Shown here: positions 41,839 to 57,381 of the stretch, in pieces
Layout of the letters: every line of letters begins with the position of its first letter
Numbering within the stretch: position 1 is the stretch's first letter
Assembly: GCA_001687465.1 (NCBI GenBank)
Contig: LVLI01000192.1
Span: 1-64,000 of the forward strand
Direction of reading: 5' to 3'
Origin: Halocafeteria seosinensis
Taxonomy: Eukaryota
DNA: 64,000 nucleotides
The notes under the pieces: generated by a model
The model's database searches: none
What the model saw: the letters and a program-made list of their open reading frames with translations, nothing else
Told to the model about the DNA's origin: nothing
Position numbers and translations under genes: made by a program

Positions 41839-43588
41839 CTGCAGCAAAGCATTGAATACGGTGTCAATAGAGGCGCCGGTTCCCCGATTCTCACAGCAAT
41901 AACATGGTAACACAAAAGGAGGGGTTCAACAAAAGAAAACCGGGGATAAACAAAAAACAAATGCAGCACGCATTTTGACGAGGATTTCATACGCATCCAA
42001 GCTCCGCAATTTCTACATACATACGAAGAACAAGTGTTTATCAGCCCTTTTCACCCTTTGCATCCATCGCGCATACTTCCGTTTAGAGCAAATCATCGAC
42101 ACGGTGGATCGAACCCAAAGACGAAACCACTGTTCGTGGTATCCGCGTCTTCTTTGAAGCTACTGGCTGAAAAAATCAACGAATCTCTGCTTTTCCTTCC
42201 GCCTTTTGGACCCTTTCCCTTCCCTTGTTTCTCCTCTAGCGTATGGTGCTAGGTAGAAAAGAAGATGCATAAAACAGTGCACTGACGGAAATCGGCAATG
42301 GAAGCCGTGAAAATGCTCTAAATGAAGGGATAATACCAGGAGAGTGTCTTTTGCCCTTCGATCGAGGCATTCTTGCTCCATTCTCACCACTTTTTCCACC
42401 CATATTAGAAGAAATTCAGTTTCTAGAGAGTCGACTACATTCTTTCTTCCTAGCATATGCTACTTACTTTATCCGCCATGGTTATAGTTGCTTAAATGGA
42501 GACAAAAACGCAAATCCAAACAGCTCAAAACAAGGAAAACTCCTTTTTTCTCTCTTAATACAGTCCCAGAGCAATATATGGGTACTGAATCTGAAAGAAC
42601 GAATCAAGATCTTTCCAATGAGCACGGACAGACTAATCAAAACAGCATTGAATAGCCATAAAAGGGCTCCATCTGCTCCTGAAAGTCCGTATCCAGGGTG
42701 GGTGCTACACGGTGGGATACGGTGAGCACGCCGCCCCTTGCCTTCTGGGTCGCGGGCGAAGTCTCTTTTCCTAAGCAACGACAAGTGGCGAAAAGGAAAA
42801 CGTAAACAGAGGTCTATCTTGTGGGGATTGCACTCAGGTGATGAATTATGAGTGGTGGTGTTCACCGACATGGCCACATTATACGCACGTGGCAATCCGA
42901 ACCTGCCGTGGAAGCAAATTCCTAGCCCGAGGAGAGCAAGTTGCGAAACGAGCACGTAATCAAATCCCCTTTCCTACAAATGTCAGAAATCATAATTATA
43001 CTAGTCCCTTCCCTCTGCGGATCCAAAAGTTGTTGTGTTTATGTGTTCCCTGGCACATGCACAATTCGCGGGACCAATTGGCCAACCGGGTACGGTTTCC
43101 CCACCCCTTTCCATTCTGATTTCAAAGGCAATGTTTCCAGTCTTTCAAAGTGAATGTTGTGTCTTTAGTATTCATTCACTGTGTGCATATCTCTACTTCT
43201 ACGGATCGCATACACTGATGCAGAACCCTTACCACTGGTACTCACTTCCTGAGGAAGTCTTCTTCGCAGCACTCCATTGCCTTCATCTTCCGCTACAACT
43301 TCGTCCTTGATATGCTTCGGTTTCCCGCATAACCATTTGAAACCACGCTCCCAGAACACTTTATCTCATTGCTGCCTGATAAATCGCGATTCGCGGTTCG
43401 CCTTGGCGGTTCCTGTTCCAGGGACCGCGCAATCTTTTCGCAACCTTGTAGAGCACGTCTTACGAGGCAGTGTTTGCGGCTGTATACGACGTGAGTAAGA
43501 GCATATAGTGTTAGGGAGATCGTTAACTCAATATAGGAGATGGGAACTGCTTTGGAATCTTGAAATTCGGTTGGTGAAAGAGGGAGAA

Positions 43589-47481: not shown

Positions 47482-50400
47482 CTACAATAGAGCTCCTCGG
47501 GCAACATCATACACGGTAAATCTCTGGGGGAGCATTTCTTCGATGTTCTTTTTGCAGCCTCCTCGCCATAATTTTGCAGGGGTGTGAATCAGCAAACGTT
47601 TGTTGGATTTGTCAGAGAGAGAGTCCTCAGGTGACGGATCAGGCTCTTGCGCAGCAGAAGCTGCTTCGTCCGGCGGGTGACAACAACAATCTAACACGGG
47701 AGTATTCGGAGCACCAGATCGCTGAATCGCTTCATTGAGTCGTCTCATATCGCTAAAAACTTTGGTGAAGGTGTTCCATTGACTATCCGAAGTCATACCC
47801 TCAACGCGAGCAACGGTGTCGCATTCTACATCAAACAAATGCTCGTTCAAGAACTGATCTCCGAACTGCTCGACGCACCAACCAGTGTTCTCATCTGCGG
47901 CACTGAGCCAATGGTTTTCGTAGGTATCTTCGCTCACAGGATCCTGCAGGTCGTGATCCGCAATGTCAGCATCGTCTATGTGCTTCTTCCATAACTGAAT
48001 TCTTAAATTTTGAACAGGGGCAGACGCTGTCCAAGGCTTGCCGTTCATACAAGATTCCACAGTACTCGAGCTCTCATCTGGTTGGGAACCTAACCAACCT
48101 ATCCTTAACGATATCTCTGAGTCGCCATTTCCCAGCATCGATCTGTCATTGATATTTGCACTTCCTACCATAGCGAGAGTATCGTCAACAATGAGAACCT
48201 TTGTATGAACATATACTTGTTCCAGTATTAAGATGGATTCGTCAAGTTGTTTCGCTCCAAGCAAGTGTGTGTGCATTCTCTCCAACGACTTTGTGCGTCT
48301 TAGAGTCTGTGTTTGTGCTAAGGAGCAAACGCTCAGCCATTTACGAATATCTGCATCATCTGCGTTGGGGCACCTAGATTTCAATTTGCTACGAAGCCTT
48401 GGCACCAGGGCATGCCTGCCGATGAACAGTGATTGTAGCTGCCAATACAAGATAGTCCGCAATACAGCCGAAGCGTCATCATCTTCGGGGAGGCAAGGAA
48501 CAACAATAATAGCCCGAAATGTTTCATCATTTTCTATCGCTCGACATATTCGCTCATAGAGAGCATCATTTACTTTGTTTCGAGGATACTGGGAGGTGAT
48601 GCTGCTATTTGCTTCACGATCTGCGTTCTTCAAGCCGGCCAAACTTAAGAAGAACTGATTCTCAATGTAAACATAGTGCTGTGCATCTGAAATAGCGTTG
48701 CACATAGACCTCTCGATCGACGCCTCCTTTCCGGGAAGTCCTGTGGACCATGTTGAAACTGAGGAAAGAACCTGAGCTGGACCGTACCAGCACGGAGGTA
48801 GCTCCTGGGACTGCTGAGCCCAATCCTTTCGCAATACTGGAAGATGATGCACTAACACCCCAAGAGCGCGTGTTGGCACGTGTTCGACGACAAATGCGCA
48901 AAATTCGTCGTCAGTTAGTCCATTAAATTTGAACGATGTCAACGGGTGCTGTCGCAATTCCTCGCGCTTCCACCACGGACAAAGATCACTCCGCGGAATC
49001 GCCATCTGTACCCTCCCTTTTAGACCTTTTTGCACAACGTGGTGATTCCAACGCCGAATAAAATGGAATCCCACATCTAATGCTGCCTCTCCCCCAACAA
49101 TAGCGGCTGCATCTTGCCAGGGCATCCTCGGCAGTTCCCTCTTATCAATAGTTGCCCGTACATGCGGAGGGTACCTTGACAATGCCGCATCTAAGCGAGG
49201 ATTATAGCACTCTTGCTCATTCTCCGGAATTGACGACCAGTCAGGAACAAGAGGAGTCAGTTCATTCGTATCGAAACGTCCAGGACAAAGGTCCATACCT
49301 GAACCCATACAACCGAGTGGCATACTGAAACTGCACAAATGCGAAAAATAGGAGCGCAACGACTTACCACCAACGAATGCTATTCGTTCATCAATGATAG
49401 CAGTCTTTTCATGGTGACTCCAAATACGAGAAGAGACATCCTTGACTGCAAAATTTTGTGGATGGCGAATTACTTCAATGTTTTCATGCGCATTTGCAAG
49501 GATTCGCTCAGCCCCTCGACTTCCATTTGGCATTATCGATGGCACCTCGTTATATAGCAGAACGCGAACGTGTACACCATTGCTGGCTCTATTGACAAGG
49601 ATGTCAAGCAGGGTTATAGCCATTTTCTCGCATTGGTCCGCCGGAAGACCGAGCAGATGGGGGCGAAACAGTGCCACGTTTGGATCCATCCACCAGTCCG
49701 TAATGAAGATATTGTGCTGAGCGCTTGAAAGAGCTACAGCTAAAGACACGAACGCATCTTGTCCACCAACGAGTGGGCATACTGGAACACAGCGCCGCAA
49801 CGGGAACCCACAGTCATTCGGGTGCTTGCACAATGGCCCTGCGCCAACGTCACGGCTACCGAACAGAACGGGTTCACTGAGCGCAAGAGATCGGAAATCG
49901 CTCTTCGACAAGTTTGCTATCCGAGGAGAGAAGATATCTTGGGTGTGAGGTGTTGGGTTTGCCAAGCTGGTGGTCGGACATCGATACATTTCAGACAGTG
50001 CGACCATCCATGATACAAATTCGTGCGTGCTTCCGGTCTTCAACACAAGTGACCGCGTCCGATTCTTCAGCAAAATGTACTTCTTAGAGTTATCGAAGAA
50101 TATCGAGAAGCAATCGTCGACTAAGAAGACTCCATGCACAGGATCTCTTTCTTTGGACGGAAGCTGCGTAGCTTCGTCGGCAACGGCGTCAATCGTAAAC
50201 TCCGAATCGATGTCTCGCCTTCCTCGCAGAACGGGGGCATCCTCGCCTATCTTGTTAAAGCAGTATAAGGGAAAATTCTTGGCGACGCTCCGCTTATACC
50301 AGACAATGGCACAGTCCCGCAGAGAGAACCACCTGTGTTTCCAGTTAGACACCGGGAAGCGAGAAGCGTGGAAAGCACGACCCCCGGAAAGCTTGTATGC

Positions 50401-50991
50401 CCAGCCTTCTCTGCCCTTTCTACCTAATGCAGAATCAAAGCTGCCAGGGGAAACTTCAAAAAAATGCCAAATCTGCAGGAAGACAAAACATAAGATTTAG
50501 ATATACAACACCCATTCAACTTTGCAGCAACCACTCACGTCGGGCGACAACCTCCACAGAGGCTGGGAGTCCGCTACATATTGCAAGAAATTGGGTACTC
50601 CTCGGCATCGCTCTTTAATTACCGTCTTATTGAACCGACGTTTGAAAATATGCCTCGGAGGTAACTGGGCGAAGCTGGGCAATGGTTGACCCATGACAGA
50701 TTCGTATTTCTTCCGCAGGTGGTTGAGTTCATTGTAACGACGGTGGATCGTCCACTGGAACCCTTTGCATTGGAGCTTGATGTGATACAGGACAAACACC
50801 CAAGACTCCCTGGAAACTCGGAAAGCCTCTGCTTGCACAGTTTTGACAGTAATAATGTGATTCGGTCGAGCGACGGAGTCATCCGGATGGCCCACCGCTG
50901 TCGTGCCCGAATTCTGCGAGAGCAGGGATTGCTGATTGGAGGACACCCCAACAAGGTGTCCCTCCTGCTGTAAACTCGCACTGGCACCCAT
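47482..50991 (-). CDS. PX-PH phospholipase D, copy A
   Basis: MGASAS start, PX (WTIHRRYNELNHL), PH (EGWAYK...WKHRWFSL), HKD1 SHHEKTAIID, PRMPWQD, YIENQFF, HKD2 YVHTKVLIVDD...GSANINDRS. Introns 50473-50538 and 49299-49367. Confidence 0.93.
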
Positions 50992-51399
50992 TTTCGCCTT
51001 GTGAGAACCTGTTTAACCCGGCCAGTACAAGCAAGCCTCACTCAGCGTCCCCAGGACCTGGAGTCAACAAGGCAATCTTTTCTTGCACTGGACCGTACAA
51101 TCTTTTTTTACTTCAACTTGGTGCCGCCAGAGGGCTTCAGGAAAGAGCATCGCGATACGGAGTTTTGTTAGGGTGAATTCATAAAGTAAGTGAAACATAT
51201 TCAACCTGAAAGTTGCCGAATGGTTCCGTTGGGCCGTGAAAAATGGCTTTCTTACCGCCGAAATTGCTTGAAGAGGCGACCAAAACAGTGGGCAAGCCAG
51301 GGGTTGTCACTGCTGTTTTGTGGTCTCTTTGTCGTCCCCTATGGGGCCGCTACCGAGGCTTTTTGTTGTTTCTACGAGGGTGCTTGTGAAGGTGACACC

Positions 51400-51582
51400 C
51401 AGCACATTCTATCTGGGGTAAAACGAGGTTTTCAACCGATTGTTTTGCTCCTAAACCATGTGCAATAGTAACGACGCTTGTTTGGCTACCCGCTGGTGGT
51501 CTAAAAGAGTGTCAGTGACGTGTAGTTGGATGGCAAGCTGCACTATCCCAAAGCTGCCGTCCTGGTCGCGTTTTGCACATTA
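51400..51582 (+). ncRNA. H/ACA snoRNA candidate 1 (5' pocket: 18S Psi211/218-equivalent guide, or snR30-like); 3' end uncertain
   Basis: Lower stem gcacat/atgtgc, pocket tctatct/taaacc, 12-bp upper stem 51415-26/51440-51, H box ATAGTA 51465-70 at canonical distance, a second hairpin, and ACA at 51577. Confidence 0.55.
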
Positions 51583-51789
51583 TTGTCCTTTTCCGAGGTT
51601 AAAAACCAAAAAGAGAAAGCCATGTTGAGGGAACTATTACACATGTCTTCTCTCCTTGCTGTTCGCAGATCCCTGACATAGTCTTCCTAAACTGGAACCA
51701 CTATGTAAGGTAAGTTCACAAGCCGCGGTTTTGTGAAGTGAAGCACGCTGCGAAGCGAAGCAAAGTGAAGGGATGGTGGAAATAGATAG

Positions 51790-51886
51790 ACGCACATTCT
51801 ATCTGGGGTGAGCAGCACGTTGCTAAACGCAAGGGGTATCCATCCCAATCTGTCCCTGCTCTACCTCTTATCCGTGTGCGACACGA
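51790..51886 (+). ncRNA. H/ACA hairpin candidate 2 (18S ES6 pseudouridine guide, human Psi866-equivalent)
   Basis: Lower stem cgcaca/tgtgcg, pocket ttctatct/ttatccg, upper stem ggggtgagcag/ctgctc-t-acctc, and ACA 51881-83 lying 13 nt after the upper stem. Confidence 0.6.
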
Positions 51887-52072
51887 AGGGAGTGGAACGC
51901 GCAAGCAATTAAGCTCGCTTCGATTGATGCGTTCTTGATTGTGCATGCCAATAACAACGGATTTAACGACTACAACTGTGGTTCTTGTCTGGTGCAGTCA
52001 CATTGTCAGTGCATGTTAGCGGTAGAGCGGGTGACGTGTATGGTACATACATGGGGCACCTGACGAGCTATG

Positions 52073-52164
52073 GCTCTATGAGGAACACACAGACATTCCA
52101 TGCTAAAGCTGACATGTCGTTGTTAAAGGGCAATATGTTGATTGAATGTTTATTTCCTGAGAGC
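52073..52164 (+). ncRNA. C/D snoRNA, snR53-like (18S Am796-equivalent)
   Basis: gctc/gagc stem, C ATGAGGA 52078, guide ATTCCATGCTAA 52095-106 complementary to 18S UUAGCAUGGAAU, D' CTGA 52109, C' ATGTTGA, D CTGA 52157. The D+5 rule gives the A of UUAGC. Confidence 0.85.
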
Positions 52165-52437
52165 GGAATGTCATAGCTCGTAGCACGGCGAAACTACCCG
52201 CTTCGGAGTTGTCTCTTTGACGTTCGATGATATTGCGGGACTCTCCTTGTGCGATACTGATGTCATGTCTTCGCGGTGTTACTAGGTTTCATTTGCCAAT
52301 TTGATTTCTAACCGAAGACAGGCGATAATGGGTTTCTAATTATGGTTATTCAGCGCAGGACCCCTTTATCTTTTTGGGTTGCTAATATTGTGGTAAGTAG
52401 CTGCTTCCGTTAGCGACGACATTGTCTTGGTAGCTCG

Positions 52438-52521
52438 GTCTATGATGAGATCCAACCAAAACTTAGCCGTTTACCCGGCAGACGACATTTTATGTCAGTG
52501 GTGATCATCGGTTCCTGAGAC
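52438..52521 (+). ncRNA. C/D snoRNA, SNORD87/U87-like (LSU GGGmUAAAC)
   Basis: gtc/gac stem, C ATGATGA 52442, guide GCCGTTTACCCG 52466-77 complementary to LSU CGGGUAAACGGC, D' CAGA 52479, D CTGA 52515. Confidence 0.85.
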
Positions 52522-52591
52522 TATGTTGTTTTTGCGTTATGAGTTGTTTCGGAGTTCCGAGGAGGAAAAATTTGGAATTACCGTCTGAGCA
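52522..52591 (+). ncRNA. C/D snoRNA, snR77/SNORD65-like (18S Um578-equivalent); C box unclear
   Basis: Guide TGGAATTACCG 52573-83 complementary to 18S CGGUAAUUCCA, then T and D box CTGA 52585. The D+5 rule gives CGGUmAAUU. C'-like AGGAGGA at 52560. Confidence 0.72.
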
Positions 52592-52700
52592 TGTGGCTTG
52601 TTCCCAATTTTCGGGTCATCCACTTGCGCCGGAAGACATCTGGCTGCCTGAGGAGCTCCTTAGAGTTTTCTGTTGTTCCCTTGAGCTTTTTCGTAGTTGT

Positions 52701-52788
52701 TGGAGGTGATGAAAGTACTGATTCCCCTACCAGAAGTTGTTTACCGACAATGTGGAAATTCAGTGACGCTCCAGTTTTTTCTGATCCA
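52701..52788 (+). ncRNA. C/D snoRNA, predicted LSU AGGmGGAAUC guide
   Basis: tgga/tcca stem, perfect C GTGATGA 52706, guide GATTCCCCT 52720-28, D' CAGA 52731, D CTGA 52781. Confidence 0.75.
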
Positions 52789-52955
52789 GTTGTTTGCGTT
52801 ACTTATCCGTCTGTACATGTTTTACGTATGGCTGCCTCTGCATAAATGCAGTGATCTAAACGCGAGACGTTCATAGCGACATCTTGGGAGATGCAGCAAA
52901 TGTAAGTTTCCAACGCCCCCCTTTTTTTCTTTTTCTTTTCTGTATTCCGACGCTG

Positions 52956-53051
52956 GTCCAAAGATTAACGAGAACGGGTAATTTACATCTGATGTACACT
53001 TCGCCTGTGTTATTTCCAAGTGACGAGAGGACTCTCTAAAAAAATGAGGAC
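52956..53051 (+). ncRNA. C/D snoRNA, U16(SNORD16)/snR87-like (18S Am484/Am436-equivalent)
   Basis: gtcc/ggac stem, variant C AAGATTA 52961 with D ATGA 53044, guide GGGTAATTTAC 52976-86, D' CTGA 52989, C' GTGACGA 53020. Confidence 0.78.
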
Positions 53052-53061
53052 AGTGTCTAAA

Positions 53062-53160
53062 GCACAAGGATGGCTCAGCAATAATCATGCGTGTCATATG
53101 AAGCCCCCTGAACGTTTTGTTTCGGAGGGGTTGGTGACTTGGCTATGCTAACCTGAGTGC
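53062..53160 (+). ncRNA. C/D snoRNA, double guide for U6 snRNA (Cm77 and Gm54 equivalents)
   Basis: gcac/gtgc stem, C AGGATGG 53067, guide TGCGTGTCAT 53088-97 + D' ATGA, an internal hairpin, C' TTGGTGA 53131, guide GGCTATGCTAA 53141-51 + C + D CTGA 53153. Confidence 0.8.
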
Positions 53161-53442
53161 AAGTTTACATATTGTTAACGCTACTTCGACGGTCGGTTCT
53201 CCGCCATATCCTACGCGGTCGGACCAACATTTCAACAACTTTTTGTAGCAATATAGAGCTGGCGTACAAATGGCCTCTCAATTAGTCTTTCTCCATTGTC
53301 AGAGGTTACCGCGTATGCCACATGCAACATGATGACTGTTTTCTTCTGTATTACCATGCAGGCATGTTTTACGACGCGGAAAGCGAAATGAAAATTCAAT
53401 AAACACTTCACGTCGCCTACAATGCCCTTATACAACTCGGGC

Positions 53443-56400
53443 CTATAGTAGTGCACCAAGAAACAGGTGTTCTTTTGTCAACACTTTACTTGGAAGCATT
53501 TTCTCTAGGTGTGTCGCTGATGCGTTGATCTCCTCGTCAGAGAACCTCATATTACGCCACAGCTTAGCTGGGGTGTGAATCAGCAACCGCGCTGGAGCTG
53601 GAAGGGCACTACTCTGATTTGTTTCCATGAGTGCCTCCGTTTGGGGGATTCGCATGGGTGAGCTAGAGACAGACTCTGCTTCCGGCAAATTTTGGGTGGA
53701 ATCATCGTTCTCTTCAGTGCTTTCTTTTTTGTTCTTATGTGCTATCAGCGCGTTTTCGCGAGCTTTCCAGTTTTTACTCCAAGCAGAGAAGAGTGCTGGA
53801 TTGTGCCAACCTTCGATTTCGGCTGCTGAAAAGCTACCAGAGTACAGCCGTTCATGCTGTGTTCCTTCCTCCTGGTAGTGCAAATGTTCGTTTCTAAATT
53901 TCTCGCCAAAAGCTTCAATACACATATCCGAATTAGAATCGATGCTACTCAACCATATTTCATCATAGGCTTTCAGCGGGTCTTCCAGTCCGACAACATC
54001 TCCCAAATGTTTTCGCCACAATCGCAACCTCAACTCTCGGACTGGGTTACAAGCTTGTACTGCACGTCCATCCATCGTTGAATCGACACGTGCAGACTGC
54101 TCTCGGGCTGAATTCTCCAAACCCCGCAGAGTTTCCACACTTATGGTTAAACAAGAAGACTCCTGCACGTTCTCCAGGTAGCCTATGCGCACAGCTATTT
54201 CCGAATCTCGAATTCCGTGTAGAGAACGGTCATTGATGTTAGCACTTCCTACAACAGCAAGCGTGTCATCGACAATCAAAGTCTTACTGTGGACATAGAT
54301 CTGCTCCAACATCAGGAGAGTGTCTTCCGGTTCTTCTATACATCCAAATAAATGTTCACGAATATCGGAAAGAGCAGCAGATGGATGGGATACCCGTTGT
54401 GTTTGTACTAAAGAGCAAATTGAAAGATACTTGCGCAGCTGTGCTTGTACAGAGCTCTCGGGGACGCCTACTCCCAGCTTCCTTTGAAGTGCTTTCCGTA
54501 CTGTAGGCACGAGGGCATTCTGGCCGATAAACAACGAGCGCAGTTGCCAATACAGCAGTATCCATAACACAACTGATTCTTCGGACTCTTCTGGAAGAGC
54601 TGGCAGCACGATAATCATTTTAAAGCTTTCTTCGTTCCGAATAGCTTTACATAAACGGGAGCAAAGCGCCTTCCCAACTCTGTTCAACGGTTCAGATGCA
54701 GAGAGTTTTGATTGGTCTTTCGTAATATCGGAGTCAAGCTTGCCCTCACCAAATGGGGACGCCAGACTGATGAAAAATTGATTTTCAACGTATACATAAG
54801 ACTCCGAATTTATAATTGCGTGCACCATTGCATCCTCGATGGAGTTTTCGGGGACTATTTCCTGCACTCCGGTGGACCAGTAAGAGACGGAGGAAAGAAC
54901 TTGCGCGGCACTACTGAAGCCTTCTCTTAAGGTCGACTCTTCGTCGCGACTCACGTGCCCATTCAACAACCAGGGAAATGAACACCCAAGAAGACTGGAT
55001 ACCGCCTTCGGCAGGTACCGGCGAAGATAAGCGACAGCCTCTTCTCTTGTCCAACTACCGCATCCAAATTGTGCTCCGCCCCGCGCATTGCCATGCTGGT
55101 GAAAATCACGAGGGTCATTGTCAACAATATCGCTCTGCGGAATAAGCATTGGGATTGTATTCTTTAAGTTCTGGAACCTGGACATGTCCACGAGGTGGTG
55201 GTTCCATCGCCGAATAAAGTGGAACCCCACGTCCAGGGCAGCCTGTCCACGAAGAAGAACAGCAACGTCTTGCCATGGCATGCGAGGAAATGTGGAGCCC
55301 CATTCCCCCGAAGGTACTTTCATTCTATTTTGTCCCTGGAGAGATGCTAGTTTAGCCTGAAGTCGCGGATTGTAAAATTCTTCCTCCCCTTGCCCTATCA
55401 AATCAGAAGTGGTACTGGTTTCAAATCTTCCAGGGCAAAGGTCAGCGCCTCCGACTATCGCTACACGTTGATCGACTACGACAATTTTTTCATGATGACT
55501 AAACGCTTTTTCAGTGACATCCTTCAGACTACTTGGGCCATGCCGAATCACATGAATGTTTGGAGATGCTGACTGTAACCGTTGGGAGGCGGTGTAGCTC
55601 TTGAGCTCGGGCAAAACATTCTCGTATTCGTGATACATTAATACCCAGACTTGTATGCTGTCTTCACAAGCAGGGTCGGCTCTGCTTTCAAGGATGTCAA
55701 GTAAGCTTACACTCTCCTTGCGTCGGTTGTCATCGCTGAAGGGAAGCAAAGACGTTCGTAACATCGGTAATTCTGGTTTGAGCCACCAATCTGTAATAAA
55801 TATCTCGCTCTGGGCCCCTAGAATGCACATTGCAATTGCATAATGAATTTCTTGCCCAGCAATTAGGGGTACAGCAAGATTCTTTAAGCGGAGAGGAAAT
55901 CCAGATCTGTGCGGAGAATGCCGAACGGCATCGATGAAATTGGAGCCATGGGTAGTATGTTTCCTCTTGTGTCGTCGCAAGTCCTTCAAGTAAGTACTAC
56001 AAACTCTCGTGGACTTATCCTCATGCTCTCGCTCTTGGCTATCTTCTTCACTCGAGGGAACACGGTACATGTCACTGATTGCTCTAATCCACTCCGCGAA
56101 GTCTCTGTTGTCCCGAGTAAAGACAACCAAGCACCTAGACCGATTGGTCAGCGCAATGGAACGCTTCCGCTTATCGTAGAAGACGCAAAACGCGTCGTCA
56201 ATAAGGAAAACCCCATGTTTTGTACCCTCTTGAACCCGCAGATGAGACTGTTGATTCGGTGGTAGCTGCGAGGGAGTTCTCCCCGATGGAACATGATGAG
56301 GGGGCTTGAGCCACACAATGCAACTATCTTTCAGGCAGAACCACCGTTTCCTCCAGGTGTCAATAGGTGCTTTCGAGCGACTGTATTCTCTACCACCACT

Positions 56401-56965
56401 TAACTTGTGTAGCCATCCCTCATGTCCTGTACATAGTAGTGCGTGTTATTTGGCTAAACGAGAAGTCCCCACAACCCGAGGGCGACATACCTTTTCTTCC
56501 CAAGCTCGCGTCGAAACTAATCACGCTGCAGCCAAAGAATTCCCAAGGTTTCGAACTTTCGTACCAAAACCTTTGCACATCAGCCAATTTCTGCAGGAAG
56601 TCCGGTAGTTGTTGGACGCGCTCTTCGATAACCTCGGGATTGAACCTCAATTTGAAGACGTGGCGTCGTGGTAAGAGGCCGTGCGGTCGACCGCCCCATG
56701 CGAACAATTTCTTATACGCATTGTACAGAGACAGAATTTCGTTGTAACGTCGATGAATCGTCCATCGTTGCCCGTGACAGTTGAGTTCCACCACCCAAAT
56801 CACGTAGCTGTCGCCTTCATCTGGAGAGCGTCTCCAAGCAATCGCCGTGACTTTTTCCACGGTCACAATATGGTACCCATGGACACTTCCGTATTGCTTC
56901 ACGGAGGACGGTGACTTGTAAGCTTTCGGAAGAGGCCCCTGTGGAATGCTCTGCTCGCTCCCCAT
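53443..56965 (-). CDS. PX-PH phospholipase D, copy B
   Basis: MGSEQS start, PX (WTIHRRYNEIL), PH (EGWLHKLSGG...WRKRWF), HKD1 SHHEKIVVVD, PRMPWQD, YVENQFF, HKD2 YVHSKTLIVDD...GSANINDRS. Intron 56427-56490. Confidence 0.93.
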
Positions 56966-57381
56966 TGTACAAGAAGAAAATGGGCTATAAACGCAGTACC
57001 TCACAGAGAACCCTCTTCTCTTGATGGCGCCTTCAGAGCGTAATTCAAGCCAGTTCAAGAGCCAAATGAGACTTTCCTTAGGGACATCCAAGTCCCTGCT
57101 CGGGGGGTCATCAAAGAGACAAAAGGCACATTGAGCAACACTTTTGAGATGAAAACACTACAAAACTGCGTTTCGGATATTTCCGAGGAGACAAACTTTT
57201 CATCGACCATAGTCGAAGGAAAGTTTGCCCTGTACTCATCCCACAGGATTAGGGCAGGAGGGCTTTGCTATCGTGTTTGTTTGCTTCTATTCCCCAAAAT
57301 AACACCGTGGGATGCGCTTCCTCATGTCCTTTTTCAGCCCACTATTGTAATCAGAGAAAACCCAGACCGATATCAGTCAAA

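Follow-up and report, generated by a model that had tools for sequence, protein, structure and literature searches.

A probable spliced non-coding host gene, flanked by two PLD paralogues and with several predicted snoRNAs per intron, in Halocafeteria seosinensis

The stretch analysed here, called the window, comprises positions 1 to 64,000 of contig LVLI01000192.1 from Halocafeteria seosinensis (assembly GCA_001687465.1). Between two paralogous genes of the PX-PH-PLD type it very probably contains a spliced non-coding host gene that carries several small nucleolar RNAs (snoRNAs) per intron. About ten guide RNAs, up to three in a single intron, are predicted in this host from the sequence. The host is of a known kind, and it is the layout that varies: three units per intron, box C/D and H/ACA classes mixed, and a skippable internal exon that itself contains guides. 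The two most interesting details, neither of which figured in the initial annotation, are a candidate dual guide for U6 RNA and a duplicated pair of H/ACA RNAs.

Results

Splicing of the host transcript

Splicing was assessed with the contigs of four runs from one study, aligned to positions 50300-53700. One run (X1) is DNA-like, covers the whole region in one piece and may be what the window was assembled from; the other three (X2-X4), from at most two samples, are RNA-like, and they were treated as RNA because they skip a 66-nucleotide (nt) intron in PLD A, one of the two flanking genes. Four GT-AG introns on the + strand are skipped at contig joints in 3/3 RNA-like runs and in 0/1 DNA-like run, and all four have the form GTAAGT...CAG. 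These are intron 1 (51186..51668, 483 nt), intron 2 (51710..51997, 288 nt), intron 3 (52393..52851, 459 nt) and intron 4 (52902..53361, 460 nt). Exon 2 (51669..51709) measures 41 nt, or 36 nt when an alternative donor at 51705 is used, exon 4 (52852..52901) is delimited by contig joints to 50 nt, and exon 5 (53362..53445) bears an AATAAA at 53398 and overlaps the 3' end of the other flanking gene, PLD B. Contig depth varies along the host.

Exon 3 (51998..52392, +), in which CD1 and HA3 are located, is 395 nt long and continuous in contigs of two runs (X2 record 5, X3 record 12), the second of which joins it to exon 4 (52852-52901). In one of the three RNA-like runs (X4) a joint 51704>52354 removes instead an alternative GT-AG intron of 649 nt (51705..52353, +), which places HA2, CD1 and HA3 inside an intron. 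The initial annotation had predicted five long + strand GT-AG introns separated by exons of only 34-64 nt. Four of the predicted junctions are found in the RNA-like contigs; for the fifth, no joint within 51998-52392 is among the contig joints listed for these three runs, contigs being prone to lose rare forms. The proposed exon sizes do not hold either, given the length of exon 3. The host consists of four constant introns and a skippable 395-nt internal exon, rather than of five introns with tiny exons. That the locus lacks a credible open reading frame was correctly noted: the longest ATG-started closed reading frame of the spliced forms has 41 codons. The contrast drawn with short introns elsewhere is borne out as well, by three neighbouring examples only (66, 69 and about 47 nt).

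Target sequences

Guide pairings were computed with ribosomal RNA (rRNA) of other eukaryotes and with human U6. One set of targets consisted of eukaryotic ribosomal DNA (rDNA) inside prokaryote assemblies (18 loci, L001-L018, one verified by Rfam). The other comprised 89 metagenome rDNA loci of unchecked taxonomy, chosen by a small-subunit (SSU) motif that we take to be common in stramenopiles. Human U6 was used as printed in two papers and paired by hand. Eukaryotic rDNA is frequent in prokaryote assemblies (an estimated 310 stretches or so), and L015 is an operon of fungal type whose large-subunit (LSU) gene has a group I intron. A search for U6 in viral contigs gave 16 motif loci with an Rfam match in 0/16, and a further search there gave none; no U6 was retrieved from the five genomes behind rDNA loci (0/5), where the control was silent too, and the rRNA motif had no occurrence in viral contigs.

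Box C/D units

Six C/D units were recognized, and each has a C box, a D box and a terminal stem of 4-7 base pairs (bp). CD3, CD4 and CD5 lie in intron 3, CD7 and CD6 in intron 4 and CD1 in exon 3; the six elements originally described are thus all there, but CD1 is exonic in the observed 395-nt exon form and not intronic as claimed. The C boxes of CD4, CD6 and CD7 show two departures each. In 6/6 units at least one antisense tract of at least 9 nt precedes the D or D' box and places its +5 base on a conserved rRNA or small nuclear RNA position. Such tracts had been noticed from the start, and they exceed what is obtained by chance: five perfect 10-nt tracts were observed whose ends lie 1-2 nt upstream of a D-type box, against a mean of 0.60 and a maximum of 4 in 1000 dinucleotide shuffles, of which 4/1000 reach at least four. 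The - strand gives 0 and the 56 other tiles at most 2. One of the five targets lay in the rRNA search pattern. When single CUGA boxes were compared with the 479 others in the window, CD1 (p 0.004), CD4 (0.013) and CD5 (0.03) stood out, and the other 11/14 were not significant.

Sub-threshold Rfam matches point in the same direction for individual units: SNORD12 on CD5 (28.7 bits, cut-off 43, E 0.0046), snoZ7/snoR77 on CD4 (25.3, cut-off 43), SNORD65 on CD3 (23.9, cut-off 41) and SNORD10 on CD6 (13.6, cut-off 37), with in addition a weak + strand match to Afu_300 in the host region. In the whole-window search the top three of 8 matches fall in intron 3, all to C/D families on the + strand. The stretches with HA1, HA2, CD1 and HA3 gave one irrelevant Rfam match only. 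Outside the host, a weak match to snR76 at 42254-42320 (20.9 bits, E 8.9) is probably due to chance.

CD1 (52073..52164, +) is of the snR53 type. Its D' guide forms 12 bp with the SSU around an A near 795 and 9 bp with human U6, where the +5 base is A53; the D guide is an orphan. The perfect SSU target occurs in 89/89 loci, which follows from the construction of the search pattern, and also in the fungal locus L013, fetched with a different pattern. Positions 52136-52156, with the orphan D guide of CD1, form a 21-nt inverted repeat (86%) with 53385-53405, in the polyadenylation region of the host and including its AATAAA; this is either chance or a cis interaction.

In intron 3, CD3 (52437..52522, +) has a D' guide (CAGA at 52479) with 12 bp to the LSU site GGG[G]UAAACGGC, presumably the SNORD87 site, and an orphan D guide; the target is perfect in 12/15 covering loci and in 18/18 of the first set, for which the pattern held 10/12 of the bases. 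CD4 (52552..52658, +) is of the snR77/SNORD65 type, with a C box AGGAGGA, a 7-bp stem, a D' guide of 11 bp to the SSU U near 575 (perfect in 69/80 covering loci) and again an orphan D guide. The scaffold of CD5 (52701..52788, +) is SNORD12-like, and its two guides address LSU sites 16 nt apart (perfect in 10/15 and 12/14 covering loci); for an alternative D' box (CCGA at 52744) no conserved target was found in the rDNA loci.

In intron 4, CD7 (52956..53051, +) has the boxes C AAGAUUA and D AUGA, in which C position 6 and D position 1 covary, a U-A replacing G-C in a compensatory manner. Its D' guide forms 11 bp with the SSU at an A near 430, which we take to be the snR87/U16 site (perfect in 55/68 covering loci). 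A pairing of the CD7 D guide with an SSU site, of 7 bp with a mismatch at -4 and 22 loci in the best row, was not accepted. CD6 (53062..53160, +, about 99 nt) has the stem GCAC/GUGC, the C box AGGAUGG, a D' box AUGA at 53098 and a D box CUGA at 53153. The guides match the form prevalent among the 89 rDNA loci rather than the fungal one (CD7 55/68, CD5 10/15). The targets of CD1 and CD4 are the snR53 and snR77 sites of the Neurospora table (18S-Am793 and Um575; PMC2780460), which lie at about 795 and 576 in L013.

H/ACA units

The host contains three to four H/ACA folds, so that the class had been detected correctly but its number, given as two hairpins, was too low. HA1 (51402..51582, +), in intron 1, consists of a 5' hairpin, an H box AUAGUA at 51465, an inserted hinge hairpin, a 3' hairpin and an ACA at 51577; its 3' pocket is predicted to fit the SSU uridine near 1015, and its other pocket that near 205. 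Its paralogue HA2 (51792..51959, +), in intron 2, has an H box ACACGA at 51881, an ACA at 51954, a 5' pocket predicted on the SSU uridine near 802 and a 3' pocket with no clear target. HA4 (53169..53325, +) in intron 4 is a candidate with a clean 3' hairpin (53261-53319) followed by ACA at 53320 and a pocket of 8+3 bp on the SSU uridine near 570; its 5' hairpin and H box are uncertain. With HA4, introns 3 and 4 contain three units each, in agreement with the first count of up to three snoRNAs per intron. HA3 (52183..52323, +) is weak and ambiguous: it has two hairpins, an AUA hinge and ACA at 52318, or it may be a degenerate C/D RNA (CUGA at 52257, CCGA at 52312). Within it, positions 52300-52315 include a 10-nt perfect complement of a conserved SSU site, followed by the CCGA.

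The order hairpin, ANANNA H box, hairpin, ACA is complete in HA1 and HA2, and the hinges of HA3 and HA4 are ANA lacking the sixth A. Fold z-scores relative to shuffles are -5.2 for HA1, -1.6 for HA2 and -0.3 for HA3. A bipartite pocket about 14 nt from the box is present in both hairpins of HA1, in the 5' hairpin of HA2 and in the 3' hairpin of HA4; the accepted pockets are 13-14 nt from an H or ACA box and fall on conserved SSU uridines. Random arm pairs scored as high as these in 7/600, 0/600, 8/600 and 14/400 cases, and the HA3 pocket (14%) is no better than chance.

The initial 18 nt are the same in HA1 and HA2 (repeat D4). The common left arm pairs with two SSU sites, each of which continues AGAUAG(A/G)A, and the right arms, which differ, direct HA1 to the U near 205 (where the best loci allow 12-13 bp) and HA2 to the U near 802 (4+8 bp, a site inside the search pattern). 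The pair is a compact example of how a duplicated guide could acquire a new target.

Some guides are paired on neighbouring SSU positions: the CD1 methylation site and the HA2 uridine are about 12 nt apart, the CD4 site and the HA4 uridine 3 nt. The two members of such a pair could not act simultaneously because their binding sites overlap. In the 5' part of intron 1 a long imperfect hairpin (51272-51330, with ANANNA at 51282 and ACA at 51395) may be a cleavage signal or a weak candidate for one more H/ACA RNA; a unit with this ACA as its end was not accepted, its pocket being rich in G-U pairs. A 10-nt LSU complement at 51481 lies within the stem of the inserted HA1 hairpin and was treated as chance.

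Guides for U6

The D' guide of CD6 is identical to the SNORD10 consensus of Rfam over 12 nt. With human U6 it forms 10 bp that place the +5 base on C77, and it also pairs with an LSU site (13 bp including 2 G-U, 14 loci) where the target is an LSU C. The D guide forms 11 bp with U6 positions 51-61 (10 Watson-Crick pairs and one G-U), and here the +5 base is G54. We roughly estimate a chance of about 1e-4 per box for a match of 10 Watson-Crick pairs and one G-U within 107 nt. The D guide of CD6 is that of CD1 before its D' box, displaced by one base relative to the box, and its alternative on the SSU has 9 bp. Positions 53-55 of U6 presumably form the catalytic AGC triad.

U6 G54 is a methylated site for which a 2021 review (PMC7960923) gives no guide, and a 2023 preprint (10.1101/2023.06.22.546166) describes the guide for human Gm54 as still missing. 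No published guide for this position was found in the literature searched; supplementary snoRNA tables, outside this search, might contain one from another organism.

Genomic setting

The host lies between two - strand PX-PH-PLD genes (Pfam) that are 36% identical to one another. The orientation first assigned, head-to-head with PLD A and convergent with PLD B, was confirmed. PLD A (47485..50991, -) starts with an ATG at 50991, 194 nt from the first host donor, and PLD B (53446..57157, -) has its stop at 53446. The protein of PLD A is 98% identical to P0001 (EukProt label gb/GECG01008806.1), a prefix that we take to denote a bicosoecid-type stramenopile. PLD A has two introns, of which that of 66 nt (50473-50538) is a contig joint; the other, of 69 nt (49300-49368), is in frame and free of stop codons, and is visible only as a gap in the comparison with P0001.

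The region 50992..51185 is common to the 5' end of PLD A and host exon 1, which ends at 51185. A PLD A contig reaches 51185 and then crosses the joint to 51669; contigs are unstranded, and a single transcript is not implied. Both end exons of the host join PLD contigs in this way, and such merging is compatible with overlapping ends on opposite strands. Within the shared promoter region, positions 51073-51109 hold two CAATCTTTT pyrimidine runs, at about 51077 and 51102 and 25 nt apart, which could mark a host start of the 5' terminal oligopyrimidine (5'-TOP) type or be a piece of the PLD A 5' region. Apart from the tight packing, no functional link between host and PLD genes was found.

Discussion

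Release and processing of the guides

A possible route from this locus to mature guides would start with transcription of the host by RNA polymerase II from a promoter region that it shares with PLD A, after which splicing and debranching would free the introns. The snoRNP proteins would assemble on every unit, C/D or H/ACA. The spacers of 8-42 nt would likely be cut by a single-strand endonuclease, and exonucleases would trim the ends. In intron 3 the spacers measure 29 and 42 nt; those in intron 4 measure 10 nt between CD7 and CD6 and 8 nt between CD6 and HA4. CD1 and HA3 could be freed within the 649-nt intron when exon 3 is skipped, or else the spliced RNA could be cleaved. CD6 might then bind one U6 molecule with both of its guides and direct methylation of C77 and G54, to which CD1 would add A53.

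Cutting between guides is inferred here. The fission yeast Pac1 route (PMC12508059) is unsupported because the spacers could not accommodate an RNase III stem of 20 bp and because 0/5 exon-exon junctions were found to be spanned by a stem of about that length (z -1.8 to +0.4 relative to shuffles). Introns with several snoRNAs might also stay uncut as stable tandem RNAs, protected by a snoRNP at each end, with no need for an endonuclease. Short spacers whose structure is no greater than that of shuffles (z near 0) would suit such a form, and Ostreococcus has stable multi-snoRNA species P1-P3 (PMC7671301). However, every C/D unit bears its own terminal stem and plant clusters are thought to undergo cutting and trimming (PMC2875012). 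Uncut tandem RNAs are a rather improbable outcome.

Alternatives to the host and to its guides

Several points weigh against a spliced snoRNA host at this locus. The runs on which the joints are based carry no RNA record and come from one study with at most two samples, and the mature snoRNAs are predicted only, the evidence being contigs. Pairings were made with rRNA of other eukaryotes and with human U6 instead of the organism's own RNAs, the targets of CD1 and HA2 fall inside our own SSU search pattern for the 89-locus set, and the D guides of CD1, CD3 and CD4 have no convincing conserved target in 89 + 14 rDNA loci. No Rfam family reaches its gathering score in the window, where the initial annotation had proposed this search as a check, and no cleavage signal was found between units. 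Of 14 rows from the systematic pocket scan, 4 were accepted, and a pocket match is weak by itself; therefore the H/ACA case rests on geometry and fold, not on the match alone.

One alternative is that the boxes occur by chance in a spacer between genes that is transcribed only because of read-through from the PLD genes, as the fusion of the end exons with PLD contigs and the unmet Rfam cut-offs might suggest. This is hardly credible, since the PLD genes lie on the strand opposite to four + strand GT-AG joints, and the shuffle and tile controls contradict chance boxes. More weight should be given to a slowly spliced fifth intron within exon 3, with a weak donor at 52031-52043 and an acceptor at 52321 or 52358; CD1 would then be intronic and the 395-nt exon a retained intron. 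Possible donors (GTGACG, GTATGG, GTACAT) and acceptors with branch-like CTAAC or CTAAT are present, and rare forms are easily lost from contigs. Yet such a joint is seen in 0/3 RNA-like runs among the joints listed, while the flanking joints are present, one contig has the entire exon 3 joined to exon 4, and the candidate donors are unlike the four constant ones, which are all GTAAGT. A fifth intron is thus possible but unlikely, and the skippable internal exon is the preferred description.

At the level of single guides, HA1 could be the U17/snR30 processing RNA instead of a pseudouridine guide. In its 5' hairpin the pocket has at its base AAACCAU, identical to the m2 motif, and ACAUUCUA is similar to m1 as given in the motif table of PMC7601244. 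The m1 motif itself, AUAUUCCUA/G/U in 14/14 species listed in that table, is missing from HA1, which has ACAUUCUAU. Moreover, in the predicted fold the m2 hairpin is not 3'-terminal but is followed by an H box, further hairpins with their own pocket and the ACA. A conserved SSU uridine fits into the upper pocket with 12-13 bp, and Rfam gives no SNORA73/snR30 match to HA1 at E 10. The U17/snR30 identity was rejected on m1 and position, and we consider it very unlikely. For CD6 the balance is closer. Its D guide might not serve U6 G54 at all, and might target the SSU G beside the snR53 site, repeat the A53 guide in another register or be inactive. It pairs over 9 bp with that SSU site in 88/89 loci (the site being within the search pattern), is the CD1 guide moved by one base, and was matched to human U6 and not to the organism's own. 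On the other hand, the pairing reaches 11 bp in human U6, two additional G pair in U6 only, and the +5 base lands on a known methylated site; the other CD6 guide is directed to U6 C77, and the order of the sites permits both on one U6. A function of the D guide other than at G54 is therefore a serious possibility, though somewhat the weaker one.

The full proposal is that CD6 is a double U6 guide that methylates C77 as well as G54 of the AGC triad, is a first candidate Gm54 guide and arose when the A53 guide moved by one base relative to the D box, that an H/ACA duplicate was retargeted through one pocket arm, and that exon skipping gates the release of two guides. We regard this proposal as evenly balanced between right and wrong. 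The assignment to U6 Gm54 is a sharper point than the host itself, and the predicted G54 guide is a lead worth testing. CD6 offers a concrete guide sequence and spacing to look for in animals and plants. The host, for its part, carries a known gene organization into a lineage for which little has been published on snoRNAs; the literature searched, which does not cover subscription papers, gave no study on how snoRNA genes are organized in stramenopiles.

Comparison with known systems

SNORD10/mgU6-77 (RF01290) has the same 12-nt guide as CD6 before the D' box, pairing with U6 C77 and an LSU site. CD6 differs in its low score (13.6 bits, cut-off 37), in its length of about 99 nt and in a D guide that departs from the Rfam consensus toward U6 G54.

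Intronic clusters of snoRNA genes are reportedly also present in Chlamydomonas, as Chen is said to have described in 2008. Plant and green-algal clusters have several snoRNAs per intron and require release from a polycistronic precursor, as here. They are known from Arabidopsis (PMC2875012) and from clusters 3 and 5 of Ostreococcus (PMC7671301). In Arabidopsis the intronic clusters described sit in protein-coding genes and consist of copies of one H/ACA RNA (PMC2875012), whereas the present host is non-coding and its guides differ. Intronic and exonic snoRNAs share one precursor in S. pombe snR107-snoU14 and human SNHG25 (PMC12508059), as do CD1 in exon 3 and, upstream of it, HA2 in intron 2. 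In 10/12 such mixed clusters the exonic RNA was in the last exon, and an RNase III stem spanned the junction (PMC12508059); here the exonic snoRNA is in an internal, skippable exon and a junction stem was not found.

The UHG-like non-coding hosts of Neurospora crassa are alternatively spliced, through skipped exons as well as alternative splice sites; one snoRNA is described as exon-encoded, and the snR53 homologue CD11 targets 18S as well as U6 (PMC2780460). The two systems are alike in having a non-coding spliced host, alternative splicing, an exon-borne snoRNA and a snR53-type guide for 18S and U6. The Neurospora hosts have C/D RNAs only, one per intron (PMC2780460), while C/D and H/ACA units are mixed here and two introns contain three each. 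The combined arrangement claimed at the outset therefore stands as a non-coding host with intronic clusters, but it is less special than supposed in view of the precedents in Neurospora (PMC2780460), Arabidopsis (PMC2875012) and Ostreococcus (PMC7671301).

Animal hosts of the GAS5/UHG kind have short exons, no open reading frame and snoRNAs in long introns. The present host resembles them in being spliced and non-coding, with short exons, long snoRNA-bearing introns and a distance of 36-86 nt from the last unit to the 3' splice site. Such hosts are described in PMC10557570 and PMC12508059. Their introns carry one snoRNA each (PMC2780460), whereas introns 3 and 4 of the host described here carry three units each.

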